This document shows, piece after piece, positions 3,223 through 22,200 of a DNA stretch of 64,000 nt (positions are counted from its first letter, which is position 1; each line of letters opens with the position of its first letter). A model generated the notes under the pieces. The model was not told the origin of the DNA and ran no database searches. It saw nothing but the letters and a program-made list of their open reading frames with translations. This DNA comes from Escherichia coli (lineage in GTDB: Bacteria > Pseudomonadota > Gammaproteobacteria > Enterobacterales > Enterobacteriaceae), in NCBI RefSeq assembly GCF_016026235.1, contig NZ_CP065613.1. One strand, written 5' to 3'. A program made the position numbers and the translations under genes.

Positions 3223-3987
3223 ATGAAGAATACTAAATTACTGCTGGCGATTGCGACCTCTGCAGCATTACTGACAGGGTGTCAAAATACCCACGGTATT
3301 GATACCAATATGGCTATCAGCTCCGGTTTAAATGCCTATAAAGCAGCAACATTAAGCGATGCCGATGCAAAAGCGATTGCCAATCAGGGCTGTGCCGAAA
3401 TGGACAGCGGCAATCAAGTCGCAAGTAAATCCAGCAAGTACGGTAAACGTCTGGCAAAAATCGCCAAAGCATTGGGTAACAATATTAATGGCACGCCGGT
3501 CAACTATAAGGTTTATATGACCAGCGACGTCAACGCATGGGCGATGGCGAACGGCTGTGTCCGTGTCTACAGTGGCCTGATGGACATGATGAATGACAAC
3601 GAAATTGAAGGTGTTCTGGGCCATGAACTGGGCCACGTCGCGTTGGGTCACTCGCTGGCTGAAATGAAAGCTTCTTATGCGATCGTTGCCGCACGCGATG
3701 CCATTTCAGCTACCAGCGGTGTGGCTTCCCAGCTTTCCCGCTCACAATTGGGTGATATCGCAGAAGGCGCTATTAATGCTAAATACTCCCGTGATAAAGA
3801 GTCCGAAGCAGATGATTTCTCCTTTGATCTGTTGAAGAAACGTGGCATCAGCACCCAGGGGCTGGTTGGCAGCTTTGAAAAACTGGCTAGTCTGGATGGC
3901 GGTCGCACCCAGTCCATGTTTGACTCTCACCCACCATCAACAGAGCGTGCGCAACACATCCGTGATCGTATCGCCTCTGGTAAGTAA
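3223..3987 (+). CDS. ycaL: putative periplasmic M48-family metalloprotease lipoprotein
   Basis: ORF 3199-3987; likely start MKNTKLLLAIATSAALLTGC (lipoprotein signal with lipobox LTGC); HELGH zinc motif present (GHELGHVALGH). Confidence 0.85.
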   Translation: MKNTKLLLAIATSAALLTGCQNTHGIDTNMAISSGLNAYKAATLSDADAKAIANQGCAEMDSGNQVASKSSKYGKRLAKIAKALGNNINGTPVNYKVYMTSDVNAWAMANGCVRVYSGLMDMMNDNEIEGVLGHELGHVALGHSLAEMKASYAIVAARDAISATSGVASQLSRSQLGDIAEGAINAKYSRDKESEADDFSFDLLKKRGISTQGLVGSFEKLASLDGGRTQSMFDSHPPSTERAQHIRDRIASGK

Positions 3988-4159
3988 ATCATTGTCATCT
4001 TTCGGGCTGGTCTTCTGCCAGCCCGCTATAATTGCGCAATAAATCCCCATCTGAATACAGACAAAACTGGTTTTTGCACACAACGTTAACGATTTGTGGC
4101 GTCGGCGCGTATAATGCGCGCGGTTATGTTAACGGTACGCCTGTTTTAAGGAGATAAAG

Positions 4160-13630: not shown

Positions 13631-14556
<926 letters not shown>

Positions 14557-14709
14557 TTTCACTTCACGACACTCCAGCCAATTTTGGGAGGAGTGTCGTA
14601 CCGTTACGATTTTCCTCAATTTTTCTTTTCAACAATTGATCTCATTCAGGTGACATCTTTTATATTGGCGCTCATTATGAAAGCAGTAGCTTTTATGAGG
14701 GTAATCTGA

Positions 14710-15603
14710 ATGGAACAGCTGCGTGCCGAATTAAGCCATTTACTGGGCGAAAAACTCAGTCGTATTGAGTGCGTCAATGAAAAAGCGGATACGGCGTTGT
14801 GGGCTTTGTATGACAGCCAGGGAAACCCAATGCCGTTAATGGCAAGAAGCTTTAGTACGCCCGGAAAAGCCCGACAACTGGCATGGAAAACCACCATGCT
14901 GGCAAGAAGTGGGACTGTCCGTATGCCGACTATTTATGGTGTGATGACGCATGAAGAACACCCCGGCCCTGATGTCCTGCTACTGGAGCGGATGCGTGGT
15001 GTTTCGGTGGAGGCACCAGCCCGAACACCAGAACGCTGGGAACAGCTCAAAGACCAAATCGTTGAAGCCTTACTGGCCTGGCACCGTCAGGACAGTCGCG
15101 GTTGCGTCGGCGCGGTCGACAATACTCAGGAAAATTTCTGGCCCTCATGGTACCGGCAACATGTTGAAGTGCTATGGACCACGCTCAATCAGTTCAATAA
15201 CACCGGTCTGACGATGCAGGATAAGCGGATCCTGTTTCGCACTCGCGAATGTCTCCCGGCATTATTTGAAGGCTTTAACGACAATTGTGTGTTGATTCAC
15301 GGTAACTTCTGTTTACGCAGCATGCTGAAAGATTCGCGCAGCGATCAGTTACTGGCGATGGTCGGGCCGGGACTAATGCTTTGGGCACCGCGAGAATACG
15401 AACTGTTCCGACTAATGGATAATTCTCTGGCGGAAGATTTGCTCTGGAGTTACCTGCAACGCGCGCCAGTGGCGGAGTCGTTCATCTGGCGGCGTTGGTT
15501 GTATGTGTTATGGGATGAAGTTGCGCAACTGGTTAATACCGGACGATTTAGTCGGCGCAACTTCGATCTGGCATCAAAATCACTCTTGCCGTGGCTCGCC
15601 TGA
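14710..15603 (+). CDS. ycbJ: putative phosphotransferase/kinase-like protein
   Basis: 297-aa ORF in conserved position; function not established. Confidence 0.8.
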   Translation: MEQLRAELSHLLGEKLSRIECVNEKADTALWALYDSQGNPMPLMARSFSTPGKARQLAWKTTMLARSGTVRMPTIYGVMTHEEHPGPDVLLLERMRGVSVEAPARTPERWEQLKDQIVEALLAWHRQDSRGCVGAVDNTQENFWPSWYRQHVEVLWTTLNQFNNTGLTMQDKRILFRTRECLPALFEGFNDNCVLIHGNFCLRSMLKDSRSDQLLAMVGPGLMLWAPREYELFRLMDNSLAEDLLWSYLQRAPVAESFIWRRWLYVLWDEVAQLVNTGRFSRRNFDLASKSLLPWLA

Positions 15604-16359
15604 CGGACCTTTCAGCCACTGCCAGATGCGGCCAAGCGTTTCATAGCCAACACGATCGCTATGCATCAGCCAGACCGGAGAAGGGATTGCCCGTTCCCAC
15701 GGATTAAGCGGCGAGTCGATGGCCAACTGATTCGCCGGGGCTGGCAGCGGATTTAACCCTTCCTGCTGAAAAAAGATCATCGCCCGCGGCAAATGAGACG
15801 CGGATGTCACCAGCAGGAAAGGGGCGTCACCAATCTCCTGTTTCACTGCCGCAGCTTCTTCTTCGGTATCTTTTGGCAAATCCAGAGTGATAATTTGCTC
15901 ACGCGGCACGCCCAGCGATTGCGCAACTCTGGCACCTACTTCCGCTGTACTCACCGTATTGGTTTTTGCTACGCCTCCCGTGAAGATCAGTTTTGATCCC
16001 GGATTTTCGCGCCATAAGCGAATACCTTCATTCAGGCGTGGCAGACTGTTATTGATTAAATTAGAGCTCGGTGCCCACTGCGGGTTCCAGGTATAACCGC
16101 CTCCGAGCACCACGATATAGTCCACTTTTTGTGAATTATTCCATGTCGGATAGGTGCTTTCGATGGGACGCAACAGGCGGTCGGCTACCGGTTGCAAACT
16201 CAATAACAAGAGTGCCAGCCACCCAATGCTAATAAAAATCTTCCCGGTTTTTTGAAAACGGCTAAACCACAGCAGTGCCAGGCCAGCGCCAATAATTAAC
16301 AACATCAGCGGAAGTGGCAGCAACATATTGCCAATCACTTTTTTCAGTGTAAAAAGCAT
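15580..16359 (-). CDS. elyC: envelope biogenesis factor, DUF218 family
   Basis: 259-aa ORF with N-terminal transmembrane segments; 3' end overlaps ycbJ 3' end by 24 nt (convergent). Confidence 0.85.
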   Translation of the reverse strand: MLFTLKKVIGNMLLPLPLMLLIIGAGLALLWFSRFQKTGKIFISIGWLALLLLSLQPVADRLLRPIESTYPTWNNSQKVDYIVVLGGGYTWNPQWAPSSNLINNSLPRLNEGIRLWRENPGSKLIFTGGVAKTNTVSTAEVGARVAQSLGVPREQIITLDLPKDTEEEAAAVKQEIGDAPFLLVTSASHLPRAMIFFQQEGLNPLPAPANQLAIDSPLNPWERAIPSPVWLMHSDRVGYETLGRIWQWLKGPSGEPRQE

Positions 16360-16494
16360 CCTTTCTGGTTCCTTTTTTAACCATATAGCAAGGGATCGCC
16401 AGCGATATTACACCAGACGGGTTCATTCTCGCCGTGGCTGTGACAAAATAGCGTCTTTATCAGAAAACGTCTTAGCCAACCGGTGGAGAAAGCA

Positions 16495-17280
16495 ATGCAG
16501 GATCGCAATTTTGATGATATTGCGGAAAAGTTTTCCCGTAACATTTACGGCACCACCAAAGGGCAGCTTCGACAGGCTATTCTGTGGCAGGATCTCGATC
16601 ACGTGCTGGCGGAAATGGGCCCGCAAAAACTGCGTGTGCTGGATGCTGGCGGTGGAGAAGGGCAGACCGCAATCAAAATGGCCGAGCGTGGGCATCAGGT
16701 CATTTTATGCGATCTTTCTGCGCAGATGATCGACCGCGCAAAACAGGCGGCAGAAGCAAAAGGTGTGAGCGACAACATGCAATTTATACATTGCGCCGCT
16801 CAGGATGTTGCTTCGCATTTGGAAACGCCCGTTGATCTGATATTGTTCCATGCGGTGCTCGAGTGGGTGGCCGATCCCCGCAGCGTATTACAGACCCTGT
16901 GGTCAGTGTTGCGTCCAGGCGGTGTGTTGTCGTTAATGTTCTACAATGCGCACGGCTTGCTGATGCATAACATGGTCGCCGGGAATTTTGATTACGTGCA
17001 GGCGGGAATGCCGAAAAAGAAAAAACGGACGCTTTCGCCAGATTATCCACGCGACCCGGCGCAGGTTTATCTGTGGCTGGAAGAAGCTGGTTGGCAAATT
17101 ATGGGTAAGACAGGCGTTCGCGTGTTTCATGATTATCTGCGCGAGAAGCACCAGCAGCGCGACTGCTATGAAGCATTACTTGAATTAGAAACGCGTTATT
17201 GCCGTCAGGAACCGTATATTACCCTGGGGCGTTATATTCATGTCACCGCGCGCAAACCGCAGAGCAAGGATAAAGTATGA
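16495..17280 (+). CDS. cmoM: SAM-dependent tRNA methyltransferase (formerly smtA)
   Basis: ORF track starts at a GTG (16483); ATG at 16495 is preceded by GGAG; SAM-binding motif LDAGGGEG. Confidence 0.85.
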
Positions 17281-18599
17281 GTGAATTTTCCCAGACAGTC
17301 CCCGAACTGGTTGCCTGGGCCAGAAAAAATGACTTCTCCATCTCGCTGCCGGTAGACCGACTCTCTTTTCTGCTGGCGGTTGCCACGCTGAACGGCGAGC
17401 GTCTGGATGGTGAAATGAGTGAAGGCGAGCTGGTGGATGCATTCCGCCATGTGAGTGATGCGTTTGAGCAAACCAGCGAAACCATCGGCGTGCGCGCCAA
17501 TAACGCGATCAACGACATGGTGCGTCAACGTCTGCTGAACCGCTTTACCAGCGAGCAGGCGGAAGGGAACGCAATTTACCGTCTGACGCCGCTCGGCATC
17601 GGCATTACTGACTACTACATCCGTCAGCGCGAGTTTTCTACGCTGCGTCTTTCTATGCAGTTGTCGATTGTGGCGGGTGAGCTCAAACGCGCAGCAGATG
17701 CCGCCGAAGAGGGCGGTGATGAATTTCACTGGCACCGTAATGTCTATGCGCCACTGAAATATTCGGTAGCAGAAATTTTCGACAGTATCGACCTGACGCA
17801 ACGTCTGATGGACGAACAGCAGCAGCAGGTGAAGGACGATATCGCCCAGTTGCTGAACAAAGACTGGCGGGCGGCGATTTCCAGCTGTGAATTGTTGCTT
17901 TCGGAAACTTCCGGAACGCTGCGTGAATTGCAGGATACGCTGGAAGCGGCAGGCGACAAATTGCAGGCTAATCTGTTGCGCATTCAGGATGCGACGATGA
18001 CCCATGACGATCTGCATTTCGTCGATCGTCTGGTGTTCGATCTGCAGAGCAAACTCGATCGTATTATCAGTTGGGGCCAGCAATCCATCGACTTGTGGAT
18101 TGGCTACGACCGCCACGTACACAAATTTATTCGTACCGCGATCGATATGGATAAAAACCGCGTCTTTGCTCAGCGGTTACGTCAGTCGGTACAAACCTAT
18201 TTTGATGAGCCGTGGGCGCTAACTTATGCCAATGCCGATCGTCTGCTGGATATGCGTGACGAAGAGATGGCACTGCGCGATGAAGAAGTGACTGGGGAAC
18301 TTCCTGAGGATCTGGAATACGAAGAGTTTAACGAGATCCGCGAACAGCTGGCGGCGATCATCGAAGAACAACTTGCCGTGTACAAAACCAGACAAGTGCC
18401 GCTGGATCTTGGTCTGGTGGTACGCGAATATCTGTCACAGTATCCGCGTGCACGTCACTTTGACGTTGCGCGCATTGTTATTGATCAGGCGGTACGTCTT
18501 GGCGTAGCGCAAGCAGATTTCACCGGACTGCCAGCGAAATGGCAGCCGATTAATGATTACGGAGCCAAGGTACAGGCGCATGTCATCGACAAATATTGA
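17277..18599 (+). CDS. mukF: chromosome partition protein MukF (kleisin)
   Basis: 440-aa [47 protein letters not shown]. Confidence 0.95.
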
Positions 18600-19284
18600 A
18601 CAAGTGATGCCGGTTAAGCTGGCGCAGGCGCTGGCGAATCCGTTATTTCCGGCGCTGGACAGCGCCTTACGTTCAGGCCGCCATATTGGCCTCGACGAAC
18701 TGGATAATCATGCATTCCTGATGGATTTTCAGGAATATCTGGAAGAGTTTTACGCGCGTTATAACGTTGAGCTTATTCGCGCACCGGAAGGGTTCTTCTA
18801 TTTACGCCCACGTTCCACCACTCTTATCCCGCGTTCCGTCTTGTCGGAACTGGATATGATGGTCGGGAAAATCCTCTGTTATCTCTATCTCAGCCCGGAA
18901 CGGCTGGCGAATGAGGGGATTTTCACCCAGCAGGAACTGTACGACGAACTGCTCACCCTGGCCGATGAAGCAAAACTGCTGAAACTGGTGAACAACCGTT
19001 CAACCGGTTCAGACGTTGACCGTCAGAAGTTGCAGGAGAAAGTACGTTCTTCGCTCAACCGTCTGCGTCGTTTAGGCATGGTGTGGTTTATGGGCCACGA
19101 CAGCAGCAAGTTTCGCATTACCGAATCGGTGTTCCGCTTCGGAGCCGATGTGCGTGCTGGCGACGATCCCCGTGAAGCACAGCGTCGCCTGATTCGTGAT
19201 GGCGAAGCAATGCCGATTGAAAATCATCTGCAACTCAACGATGAAACCGAAGAGAATCAGCCAGATAGCGGAGAGGAAGAATAA
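18580..19284 (+). CDS. mukE: chromosome partition protein MukE
   Basis: ORF 18553-19284; likely start [16 protein letters not shown]; overlaps mukF 3' end. Confidence 0.9.
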
Positions 19285-22200
19285 TGATTGAACGCGGTAA
19301 ATTTCGCTCACTGACGCTGATTAACTGGAACGGCTTTTTTGCCCGAACTTTTGACCTTGACGAGCTGGTCACGACGCTTTCTGGCGGTAACGGGGCGGGT
19401 AAATCCACCACCATGGCGGCGTTCGTTACGGCGCTGATCCCCGACCTGACCCTGCTGCATTTCCGTAACACTACGGAAGCCGGGGCCACCAGCGGTTCGC
19501 GCGATAAAGGTCTGCACGGTAAGCTGAAAGCGGGTGTCTGTTATTCGATGCTCGACACCATTAACTCGCGCCACCAGCGCGTGGTGGTCGGTGTGCGTCT
19601 GCAACAGGTTGCCGGACGCGATCGTAAAGTGGATATCAAACCATTTGCCATTCAGGGACTGCCGATGTCGGTGCAGCCGACACAGCTGGTGACCGAAACC
19701 CTGAACGAACGCCAGGCGCGCGTGCTGCCGCTTAACGAGCTGAAAGACAAGCTCGAGGCGATGGAAGGCGTGCAGTTTAAACAGTTCAACTCCATTACCG
19801 ATTACCACTCGCTGATGTTCGATCTGGGCATCATCGCGCGTCGTCTGCGCTCCGCATCTGACCGTAGCAAATTCTATCGTCTGATCGAAGCTTCGCTGTA
19901 TGGCGGGATCTCCAGTGCCATTACCCGTTCTCTGCGCGACTACCTGTTGCCGGAAAACAGCGGCGTGCGTAAAGCGTTCCAGGACATGGAAGCGGCGCTG
20001 CGTGAAAACCGCATGACGCTGGAAGCGATTCGTGTCACCCAGTCGGACCGTGACCTGTTTAAGCATCTGATCAGCGAAGCTACCAACTACGTGGCGGCGG
20101 ACTACATGCGTCACGCCAACGAGCGCCGTGTCCATCTCGACAAAGCCCTGGAGTTTCGTCGCGAGCTACATACTTCGCGTCAGCAACTGGCGGCTGAGCA
20201 GTACAAACACGTCGATATGGCGCGTGAGCTGGCAGAGCACAACGGTGCCGAAGGCGATCTGGAAGCGGATTATCAGTCGGCCAGCGATCACCTGAACCTG
20301 GTGCAAACCGCACTGCGTCAGCAGGAGAAGATCGAACGCTACGAAGCGGATCTCGATGAGCTGCAGATCCGTCTGGAAGAGCAAAACGAAGTGGTGGCAG
20401 AAGCCATCGAACGCCAGGAAGAGAACGAGGTTCGTGCGGAAGCTGCCGAACTGGAAGTGGACGAGCTGAAAAGCCAGCTTGCTGACTACCAGCAGGCGCT
20501 GGACGTCCAGCAAACGCGCGCGATCCAGTATAACCAGGCGATTGCTGCGCTTAATCGCGCCAAAGAATTGTGTCATCTGCCGGACTTAACCGCCGACAGC
20601 GCCGCCGAATGGCTGGAAACCTTCCAGGCGAAAGAGCTGGAAGCGACTGAAAAAATGCTCACTCTTGAGCAGAAAATGAGCATGGCGCAAACCGCGCACA
20701 GCCAGTTTGAGCAGGCTTATCAGCTGGTGGTGGCAATCAACGGCCCGCTGGCGCGTAACGAGGCGTGGGATGTCGCTCGCGAACTATTGCGCGAAGGGGT
20801 CGATCAGCGTCACCTGGCAGAGCAGGTTCAGCCGTTGCGGATGCGCTTAAGCGAACTGGAACAGCGTCTGCGCGAGCAGCAAGAAGCTGAGCGTCTGCTG
20901 GCAGATTTCTGCAAACGTCAGGGCAAGAATTTTGATATTGATGAACTGGAAGCTCTGCATCAGGAGCTGGAAGCACGCATTGCCTCTCTTTCCGATAGCG
21001 TATCTAACGCCCGTGAAGAGCGGATGGCACTGCGGCAGGAACAGGAACAGCTGCAGTCTCGCATTCAGAGTTTGATGCAGCGTGCGCCGGTTTGGCTGGC
21101 AGCGCAAAACAGTCTCAACCAGTTGAGCGAACAGTGCGGCGAAGAGTTCACCTCCAGCCAGGACGTCACCGAATTCCTGCAACAGCTGCTGGAGCGTGAG
21201 CGCGAAGCCATTGTTGAACGCGATGAAGTGGGCGCGCGCAAAAACGCTGTCGATGAAGAGATCGAACGTTTAAGCCAGCCTGGCGGCTCTGAAGACCAGC
21301 GTCTGAATGCGCTGGCGGAGCGTTTTGGCGGCGTGCTGCTGTCAGAAATTTATGATGACGTTAGCCTGGAAGATGCGCCGTACTTCTCAGCGCTGTATGG
21401 CCCGTCACGCCACGCCATCGTGGTGCCAGATCTGTCACAGGTAACTGAACACCTGGAGGGCTTGACCGATTGCCCGGAAGATCTCTATTTGATCGAAGGG
21501 GATCCGCAGTCATTCGATGACAGCGTGTTCAGCGTTGATGAGCTGGAAAAAGCGGTAGTGGTGAAAATCGCCGATCGTCAGTGGCGTTATTCACGTTTCC
21601 CGGAAGTGCCGCTGTTTGGTCGTGCTGCGCGTGAAAGCCGTATTGAAAGCCTCCATGCCGAGCGTGAAGTGCTTTCCGAACGCTTCGCCACGCTCTCCTT
21701 TGACGTACAGAAAACCCAGCGTCTGCATCAGGCGTTCAGCCGCTTTATCGGTAGTCATCTGGCGGTGGCGTTTGAGTCTGACCCGGAAGCAGAAATCCGT
21801 CAACTGAACAGCCGTCGCGTCGAACTGGAGCGGGCGCTGAGTAATCATGAAAATGATAACCAGCAGCAGCGTATTCAATTTGAGCAGGCGAAAGAGGGCG
21901 TTACGGCGCTGAACCGCATTCTGCCGCGTCTCAACCTGTTGGCTGATGACAGCCTGGCGGATCGCGTCGATGAAATCCGCGAACGTCTGGATGAAGCCCA
22001 GGAAGCCGCGCGTTTTGTTCAGCAGTTTGGCAATCAACTGGCGAAACTGGAACCGATTGTTTCAGTGTTGCAGAGCGACCCGGAACAGTTCGAACAGTTA
22101 AAAGAAGATTACGCGTACTCTCAGCAGATGCAGCGCGATGCCCGTCAGCAGGCGTTTGCCCTGACGGAAGTGGTGCAGCGTCGTGCGCACTTTAGCTATT

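Follow-up and report, generated by a model that had tools for sequence, protein, structure and literature searches.

A convergent 24-bp dual-coding overlap joins the 3' ends of ycbJ and elyC in Escherichia coli and its relatives

Introduction

Convergent gene overlaps are, to our knowledge, mostly just a few base pairs long. Bidirectional intrinsic terminators between convergent genes were reportedly described by Ju, Li and Liu in 2019, and Peters et al. are said to have found in 2012 that Rho terminates untranslated RNA past stop codons as well as antisense transcripts. Escherichia coli has 663 overlapping adjacent gene pairs, 75 of which are convergent (PMC4161906, Huvet & Stumpf 2014), and convergent pairs account for 7% of the 42,055 well-characterised overlaps analysed across 338 genomes (PMC2478687). 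Movement of a stop codon is the standard route to such overlaps (PMC4161906, PMC2478687), and those exceeding 60 bp are suspected as artefacts, a limit that lies well above the 24 bp described here (PMC2478687). A related class comprises the convergent excludons, in which the transcripts of opposite-strand neighbours overlap (PMC12288877); in classical excludons, long untranslated regions overlap and the two genes show reciprocal expression.

Here, we analyze the shared 3' ends of ycbJ and elyC in a 64,000-nucleotide window of E. coli contig NZ_CP065613.1 (assembly GCF_016026235.1). This pair has every tested feature of a conserved convergent overlapping gene pair. Like the pairs in PMC4161906, it consists of real opposite-strand genes that share their 3' ends in a short, conserved overlap, with an origin in stop movement or 3' extension and with purifying selection in both frames, and it does not differ in any essential way from the conserved pairs of Rogozin et al. 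(2002) as these are relayed in PMC2478687. It is one ordinary convergent overlap among about 75 in E. coli and is already known from the reference annotation, a phenomics preprint, and an excludon catalogue. Our additions are its phylogenetic extent, the direction of its origin, a dual-coding signature at single bases, and the way in which a REP insertion resolves it. We consider it very probable that ycbJ/elyC is a real and evolutionarily stable convergent dual-coding overlap that arose by extension of ElyC, is constrained mainly through YcbJ, likely relies on Rho to end its transcripts, and is probably tolerated as a side effect.

Results and Discussion

Geometry and annotation of the overlap

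In the six-frame list of open reading frames, the ycbJ coding sequence occupies positions 14710–15603 of the + strand, and that of elyC (ycbC) occupies positions 15580–16359 of the − strand, so that 24 bp (15580–15603) are common to both and each stop codon lies inside the coding sequence of the opposite-strand partner. The convergent overlap proposed in the initial annotation is thereby confirmed, and it recurs in two RefSeq annotations. Strain FDAARGOS_943 is 99.9% identical over the 1.9-kb region and carries the identical pair with the same 24-bp overlap, as does K-12 MG1655 (ycbJ, 971752–972645, +; elyC, 972622–973401, −), from whose coordinates those of the window follow by subtracting 957042. 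The region was found in 5,422 of 5,426 complete E. coli genomes.

YcbJ (297 aa) is a putative phosphotransferase of the APH/fructosamine-kinase-like superfamily, with the APH domain PF01636 at residues 64–249, and ElyC (259 aa) is an envelope biogenesis factor with the DUF218 domain PF02698 at residues 80–231. Both have full-length homologues in the Enterobacteriaceae and are real protein-coding genes by these measures; in addition, phenotypes of ElyC mutants have been published (PMC3879167).

The shared bases, TCACTCTTGCCGTGGCTCGCCTGA, read S-L-L-P-W-L-A-stop on the + strand, which is the YcbJ C-terminus (residues 291–297), and S-G-E-P-R-Q-E-stop on the − strand, which is the ElyC C-terminus (residues 253–259). 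Each gene therefore contributes seven sense codons and a stop codon; the count of eight shared codons per gene given initially is right with the stop included and is one too many for sense codons. The codons are in exactly antiparallel register, ycbJ position 1 lying opposite elyC position 3. The elyC stop codon TGA (15580–15582, − strand) pairs with the ycbJ Ser291 codon TCA, and the ycbJ stop codon TGA (15601–15603, + strand) pairs with the elyC Ser253 codon TCA.

Conservation among relatives

Eighty loci were retrieved from species-representative genomes with an alignment of YcbJ, and the two genes were read through to their stop codons; 78 of these loci contain both genes. At E ≤ 0.001, just 201 representatives among 1.8 billion belong to the YcbJ family, which is thus narrow, and the 80 loci are the closest 80 of 131 relatives. 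They include Escherichia, Salmonella, Citrobacter, Enterobacter, Kosakonia, Lelliottia, Leclercia, Trabulsiella, Atlantibacter, Phytobacter, Pluralibacter, and Yokenella, while Klebsiella, Yersiniaceae, Erwiniaceae, and others fall outside the sample. YcbJ identity over the sampled Enterobacteriaceae loci ranges from 81 to 99%, and the protein is 297 aa long in almost all relatives.

Within this closest 80 of 131 relatives, the genes overlap in 73 of 78 species loci by 21–36 bp, and the overlap is thus conserved in other genomes. It measures exactly 24 bp in 67/78 loci, 21 bp in 5/78, and 36 bp in 1/78, the last through an extension of ycbJ. Four of the 21-bp loci have TTA or CTA as the codon for YcbJ Leu292, which brings the elyC stop forward; the fifth (L074) has a YcbJ shortened by one codon and retains the elyC TGA stop. 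The overlap is absent from 4/78 loci, and one further locus (L067) retains the junction sequence and carries an elyC frameshift upstream of it.

In this register, an antisense stop requires a TTA, CTA, or TCA codon in ycbJ (15 of its 297 codons), which gives P = 0.70 for seven open antisense codons, so the mere existence of the overlap is unsurprising. Its conservation across the aligned loci, on the other hand, exceeds chance.

More divergent relatives show other arrangements. In Dryocola/Cedecea/Buttiauxella, where YcbJ is 73% identical to the E. coli protein, the overlap is 21 bp and ElyC ends …WLKGGSGNPGE. In a Plesiomonas shigelloides-type locus (YcbJ identity, 42%), the genes are separated by a 30-bp gap and ElyC ends …LKGKH; in a lineage with 33% identity, the gap is 107 bp and ElyC ends …LWLSLTSPVVKNASTKKISD; and in a lineage with 44% identity, there is no elyC between ycbJ and cmoM and hence no ElyC end to compare. 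The ...PWL... C-terminus of YcbJ is kept in all four of these divergent representatives.

Probable origin by extension of ElyC

The gene neighbourhood, in which kdsB–ycbJ converges on elyC–cmoM–mukFEB, is old. The arrangement with separated genes appears to be ancestral, and the overlap would have arisen near the base of the Enterobacteriaceae by 3' extension of ElyC, a direction of evolution that is read from three outgroup loci, two of them metagenome assemblies. In distant relatives, ycbJ and elyC lie 30–107 bp apart, with ElyC ending just past its conserved ...LKG motif. The Enterobacteriaceae ancestor would have lost the spacer together with the original elyC stop, and the elyC frame would have continued through the antisense strand of the ycbJ tail as far as the first antisense stop, the complement of the YcbJ Ser291 TCA. 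Such an extension would have given ElyC a short tail of Pro, Gly, and charged residues.

The two protein ends are conserved to different degrees. The YcbJ tail, ...FDLA(S/A/T)KSLLPWLA, is nearly invariant among relatives. In an alignment of 26 ElyC sequences, the invariant or nearly invariant columns stop at K250/G251 (…WQWLKG), and residues 252–259 are not conserved. In an AlphaFold2 model of ElyC (mean pLDDT, 77.6), the last helix ends at residue 250 and residues 251–259 form a coil; pLDDT falls below 50 for residues 255–259, and the whole region from residue 212 onward is weak. The added Pro/Gly/charged tail is accordingly predicted, with low confidence, to be unstructured in this model. 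The corresponding model of YcbJ, built from an eight-sequence alignment, has a pLDDT of 41.7 and is unusable; nothing about the structure of the YcbJ tail is concluded from it.

Selection on both frames

We compared third-position entropy in four-fold codon boxes over 76 ungapped ycbJ sequences, excluding the one locus that ends in TAA (L058). Mean wobble entropy is 0.69 bits for the five codons in the overlap and 1.50 bits for the 102 codons outside it, and none of 20,000 random five-codon draws had an entropy as low as that of the overlap.

The signal can be followed to single bases. Ser291, which supplies the elyC stop, is encoded by TCA in 71/76 sequences and ranks in the lowest 1% relative to the 102 outside codons. 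Its wobble A (15582, within the elyC stop) is kept in the same 71/76, and all five exceptions have elyC stops elsewhere. Pro294 is encoded only by CCC or CCG (lowest 2% of the outside codons), specifying Gly or Arg in ElyC. Codon 297 is NNC in 75/76 sequences, the lowest in comparison with the 102 outside codons, and specifies Gly or Asp in ElyC; the lone exception to C at this wobble base (15600) is a locus that has no overlap (L015). The ycbJ stop, which was not ranked, is TGA in 76/76 sequences and specifies ElyC Ser253. The constraint relaxes exactly where the overlap has been lost, and purifying selection is therefore seen to come from both frames. Without the Ser291 TCA, ElyC would run on for a median of 36 further codons (range, 1–178), which is enough to explain why this base is frozen.

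The two frames do not weigh equally. Judged from the alignments, the YcbJ tail (…K-S-L-L-P-W-L-A) is shown to be under strong selection at the protein level, and the ElyC tail mostly mirrors the synonymous codon choice of YcbJ. Selection on ElyC also freezes a few ycbJ wobble bases, namely the A that makes the stop, the C that specifies Gly/Asp, and the C/G that specifies Gly/Arg. The remaining ElyC-tail variation (E/Q/K and G/R) mostly results from synonymous changes in YcbJ, which indicates that the ElyC tail is translated and weakly constrained and that YcbJ dominates.

Citrobacter freundii-complex loci that have lost the overlap

Four loci of the Citrobacter freundii complex (L007, L015, L019, and L030) have 35–117 bp between ycbJ and elyC, and ElyC ends ...WLKG(S/A/R)EH there. 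The inserted DNA starts directly after the ycbJ stop and contains palindromic units, for example, the inverted arms GCGTCTTATCCGGCC / GGCCTGATAAGACGC. The insert of one locus (L007:1364–1478) has matches at a median of at least 40 sites in each E. coli genome, and the best hits listed have no annotated feature, which identifies it as a dispersed repeat of the REP/BIME type, a class of palindromic units scattered through each genome in many intergenic copies. A search of the window for the REP core pattern returned no copy. Both genes are intact in these Citrobacter loci. Because the REP insertion removed the overlap and left the genes intact, the 24-bp overlap and the ElyC tail appear to be dispensable in at least the Citrobacter freundii complex.

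Transcription termination

The initial annotation stated that there is no room for a terminator between the two genes. This holds, since intergenic DNA is absent and no terminator can lie between ycbJ and elyC. A consensus scan found no terminator-like site downstream of either stop, and sliding-window folding of 400 nt on each side gave hairpins, none of which is followed by a U-run. Rfam searches of 14400–16700 at permissive thresholds returned no match, and folding an alignment of 19 species downstream of ycbJ gave a consensus of only −5.15 kcal/mol, with no useful covariation.

Bidirectional intrinsic terminators address the same problem that this locus poses, that of ending two converging transcripts in little space. 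Unlike the places where they act, ycbJ/elyC in E. coli has neither intergenic DNA nor a hairpin flanked by A- and U-tracts; the scan, the folds, and the Rfam search together detected no GC-rich hairpin with an A-tract and a U-tract. A hidden terminator of this type was rejected on these grounds. An intergenic hairpin between ycbJ and elyC occurs only in the Plesiomonas-type relative, and it is without U-tracts.

With no intrinsic terminator after either stop, each transcript is expected to continue untranslated into the antisense of its partner. On the + strand, the untranslated continuation of the ycbJ transcript (15604–15700) is antisense to the elyC 3' end, lacks an intrinsic terminator, and is mildly C-rich, with a C/G ratio of 1.37 just past the ycbJ stop that falls to about 1.0. 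On the − strand, a C-rich and G-poor region just past the elyC stop (15460–15579) is a candidate Rho-loading (rut-like) site: 78-nt windows of the elyC transcript that start at 15566–15514 contain 32–36% C and 15–21% G (C/G, 1.75–2.08). The C-rich, G-poor untranslated stretch expected of Rho substrates is thus present on the − strand and weakly so on the + strand.

Published data add to this on the + strand. A region of Rho-dependent, bicyclomycin (BCM)-sensitive termination peaks at 15078 (MG1655 972120), within ycbJ (PMC7815308). Upstream/downstream reads are 135/18 in untreated cells and 192/140 with BCM (PMC7815308, Adams et al. 2021). The Rho score is 5.47 (p = 5e-12), computed with an 800-nt downstream window that spans the overlap and an upstream half that takes in the better-expressed kdsB (PMC7815308). 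No − strand Rho region is reported at ycbJ/elyC in that study. Term-seq, by which the initial annotation suggested checking the overlap, is available genome-wide from the same source; it places a 3' end after kdsB at MG1655 971644 (window 14602), and its tables assign none to ycbJ or elyC, so the check yields no discrete 3' end for either gene (PMC7815308). The SMRT-Cappable-seq supplements do not mention ycbJ or elyC. A single "iTSS_II" half-life event that a rifampicin-decay supplement assigns to ycbJ, at 971175 in an unspecified coordinate version, is irrelevant to the overlap.

This locus resembles described cases of Rho-dependent termination in the untranslated antisense RNA past each stop, in the C-rich, G-poor tract past the elyC stop, and in the BCM-sensitive + strand read-through, and it differs in that no − strand region has been reported (PMC7815308). 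From the BCM data on the + strand and the C-rich stretch past the elyC stop, Rho-dependent termination is the likeliest route, and both read-through transcripts would most likely be ended by Rho. We infer that Rho may act at the overlap itself.

Antisense transcription

The initial annotation further held that the arrangement implies transcriptional interference or antisense overlap. Antisense complementarity at the 3' ends does follow, because overlapping coding sequences make the full-length YcbJ and ElyC mRNAs complementary over at least 24 nt. Interference does not, since the lack of room for a terminator between the genes leaves termination possible inside the coding sequence of the partner.

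The pair shares with convergent excludons the overlapping transcripts of opposite-strand neighbours and is explicitly part of the E. coli excludome, where ExcludonFinder lists it among 165 convergent excludons, in at least 50% of 58 MG1655 RNA-seq samples (PMC12288877). It differs from the classical cases in that its coding sequences impose the overlap. In Table S1c of PMC7373196 (Huang et al. 2020), sense/antisense RPM in the wild type is 36.4/5.4 for ycbJ and 20.5/7.1 for ycbC; for the neighbours kdsB and mukF, it is 106/1.7 and 82.7/1.8. The antisense signal in total RNA-seq is thus unusually high over both genes in that table. The same source gives a modest 8–19 RPM per gene of p19-captured dsRNA. 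Its sense RPM values in the wild type, rnc-14, and rnc-38 are 36.4, 32.7, and 15.9 for ycbJ and 20.5, 11.0, and 16.7 for ycbC; these single values per strain show no consistent change in the rnc strains. Taken together, the values in this table indicate that both strands are transcribed at low, comparable levels and that some duplex forms, and they do not make the locus a dsRNA hot spot. We found no report of reciprocal expression in the literature on ycbJ/elyC. Given the low expression of both genes, the complementarity of the 3' ends is probably a tolerated side effect and not a regulatory device.

Alternative readings

An annotation or sequence error, with one of the proteins truly ending earlier, would make the overlap an artefact. 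In databases, long convergent overlaps frequently stem from artefactual 3' extension (PMC2478687), and at the protein level the ElyC tail shows no conservation. Stop codons, however, are not predictions, and the conserved domains up to the tails fix both frames; about 5,422 genomes carry this very sequence, and most of the species loci show the same architecture. Moreover, the ycbJ wobble bases that matter to elyC alone are kept and drift only where the overlap is lost, which shows that the frame of the ElyC tail is read. With stop codons fixed and both frames constrained, we reject misannotation, whose probability we regard as close to nil. A very unlikely but less extreme alternative concerns termination and holds that each transcript ends at cryptic intrinsic or structure-dependent sites inside the partner gene, no more than a few tens of nucleotides on, making the antisense overlap minimal and inconsequential. 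A hairpin of −21 kcal/mol at 15455–15504, about 80–125 nt past the elyC stop, is compatible with such a site; it is kept in 19 species with a few compensatory changes, its + strand version was flagged as terminator-like at 15477–15493, and the Plesiomonas-type locus has a perfect intergenic hairpin with an 11-bp stem. On the − strand, however, the E. coli hairpin has no U-tract, and on the + strand it precedes the ycbJ stop. Its conservation coincides with the invariant protein segment APVAESFIWRRWLY, the + strand past the ycbJ stop forms no consensus structure beyond the −5.15 kcal/mol noted above, and Term-seq has no 3' end here (PMC7815308). Rho-dependent termination remains the reading that we prefer.

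It is also unlikely, if somewhat less so, that the overlap is a regulatory device under selection, in which collision of RNA polymerases, cleavage by RNase III, or both would impose reciprocal control on ElyC (needed at low temperature) and YcbJ. Its listing as a convergent excludon in at least half of the samples (PMC12288877) speaks for this idea, but any transcribed pair with overlapping coding sequences qualifies automatically. The antisense/sense ratio over both genes is 5–30 times that of the neighbours and p19-captured dsRNA reads exist for both in PMC7373196; these dsRNA levels, however, are only modest against a cluster threshold of about 23 RPM within 200 bp in the same source, and collisions should be rare between two weakly expressed genes. 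The recurrence of exactly 24 bp among the closest 80 of 131 relatives is consistent with regulation as well, and the family-wide exact length and the TGA/TCA pairing could be the mark of selection on the overlap itself. Constraint on the YcbJ tail at the protein level, combined with selection against a median 36-codon extension of ElyC, nevertheless explains the conservation well enough; the Citrobacter freundii complex has separated the two genes by REP insertion with both intact, and reciprocal expression is unreported. There is a small chance, slightly below that of the regulatory reading in general, that the codon-on-codon overlap is kept for coupling, with converging transcription and the 3' duplex setting the ElyC:YcbJ ratio, for example, as the envelope adapts to cold. 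If so, it would be a family-wide excludon embedded in coding sequence that ties together an envelope factor and a kinase-like, uncharacterised protein, and the linked pair would sit in an LPS/Kdo gene neighbourhood. The tolerated side effect is the interpretation that we carry forward.

Practical consequences

As a teaching case, ycbJ/elyC shows cleanly how convergent overlaps originate (3' extension), are held in place (purifying selection in both frames, seen at single wobble bases), and are undone (REP insertion). It poses no fresh problem in either transcription termination or antisense regulation. Deletion of one gene damages its partner. The Keio ΔycbJ mutant resembles ΔelyC, a likeness that the authors attribute to the overlap, stating that deletion of ycbJ inactivates elyC (bioRxiv 10.1101/2025.02.11.637708). 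The main value of the finding is practical, in that ycbJ and elyC cannot be manipulated independently. In the Keio design of Baba et al., from 2006, the scar is said to retain the last six sense codons and the stop, 21 nt in all. Presumably, then, Keio ΔycbJ would remove exactly the elyC stop codon, and ΔelyC exactly the ycbJ stop codon. As these deletions would take the stop codon of the partner, phenotypes assigned to ycbJ may really be elyC phenotypes.

Variation at the ycbJ–elyC Junction

The codon for ElyC residue 252 (window 15604–15606) directly adjoins, on the outside, the 24 bp shared by the 3′ ends of ycbJ and elyC (15580–15603). This codon is variable at all three positions across species, encoding P, S, A, D, T, I, V, K, R, L, or G, and specifies Pro in the window versus Ser in K-12. 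Residue 252 marks the border between the conserved ElyC core and a passenger tail.

A palindromic repeat of the REP/BIME type separates ycbJ from elyC in four loci from genomes of the Citrobacter freundii complex, lying directly 3′ of the ycbJ stop codon (L007:1364–1478, L019:3395–3487, L030:3395–3452, and L015:3395–3429). The spacing between the two genes is 35–117 bp in these loci, and the insert alters the ElyC C-terminus to ...WLKG(S/A/R)EH*. At least 40 intergenic copies of the insert are present per E. coli genome. In the Plesiomonas shigelloides-type locus L087, the 30 bp separating ycbJ from the DUF218 gene contain a perfect hairpin with an 11-bp stem, GGAATAACCGC ... GCGGTTATTCC (L087:2030–2058), which overlaps the ycbJ stop codon and is flanked by no U-tract on either side. 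This hairpin may act as a bidirectional stop or as a stabilizer element.

Same-strand neighbors are also densely packed across window positions of about 13800–19300. In the L001 and L002 annotations, the overlap is 4 bp for both ycaR/kdsB and cmoM/mukF, 20 bp for mukF/mukE, and 1 bp for mukE/mukB.

Transcription of ycbJ and elyC

A hairpin resembling a terminator (window 14531–14554) overlaps the stop codon of kdsB, and published Term-seq data place a strong kdsB 3′ end at MG1655 position 971644, equivalent to window position 14602 (PMC7815308). On account of these features, ycbJ is probably expressed from a weak promoter of its own, and a promoter-like site is found at 14650–14678. Bicyclomycin data from the same study locate a + strand Rho termination region inside the ycbJ frame (MG1655 972120, window ~15078; Rho score 5.47), which suggests that transcription of ycbJ ends prematurely or is poorly coupled to translation.

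Farther downstream, ycbJ contains a stable hairpin at 15455–15504 (about −21 kcal/mol on the − strand), the + strand form of which scored as terminator-like at 15477–15493, ~110 nt upstream of the ycbJ stop codon. The hairpin is kept in 19 species with a few compensatory pairs, and its conservation may simply be due to the invariant protein segment APVAESFIWRRWLY.

Both strands of elyC (ycbC) are transcribed at comparable levels whichever strand assignment holds (PMC7373196, Table S1c). The sense/antisense assignment of ycbC in that table should be treated cautiously because its strand column, which gives ycbC as + and mukB as −, appears inconsistent and differs from Table S1b and the genome annotation.

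Atypical Loci among Relatives

In the L085 lineage, whose YcbJ is 44% identical, kdsB–ycbJ is followed directly by cmoM–mukF with no elyC between them (L085:2501–4287); the DUF218 gene is thus not a fixed member of the ycbJ neighborhood. Leclercia adecarboxylata NCTC13032 (L067) has an apparent mid-gene frameshift in elyC (region about 3374–4150; translation ending ...RLWLPIRVRK*), although the ycbJ/elyC junction sequence is intact; either this elyC is a pseudogene or the assembly is in error.

The locus titled "Chryseobacterium sp. 18061" (L060) is a typical Enterobacteriaceae ycbJ–elyC locus, with a YcbJ 85% identical to that of E. coli (84.5%, versus 83.8% for L061, "Citrobacter sp. 18056"). 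Loci L060 and L061, which come from one and the same study, have the ElyC tail and a 21-bp overlap in common, and L060 looks like a mislabeled or contaminated assembly.
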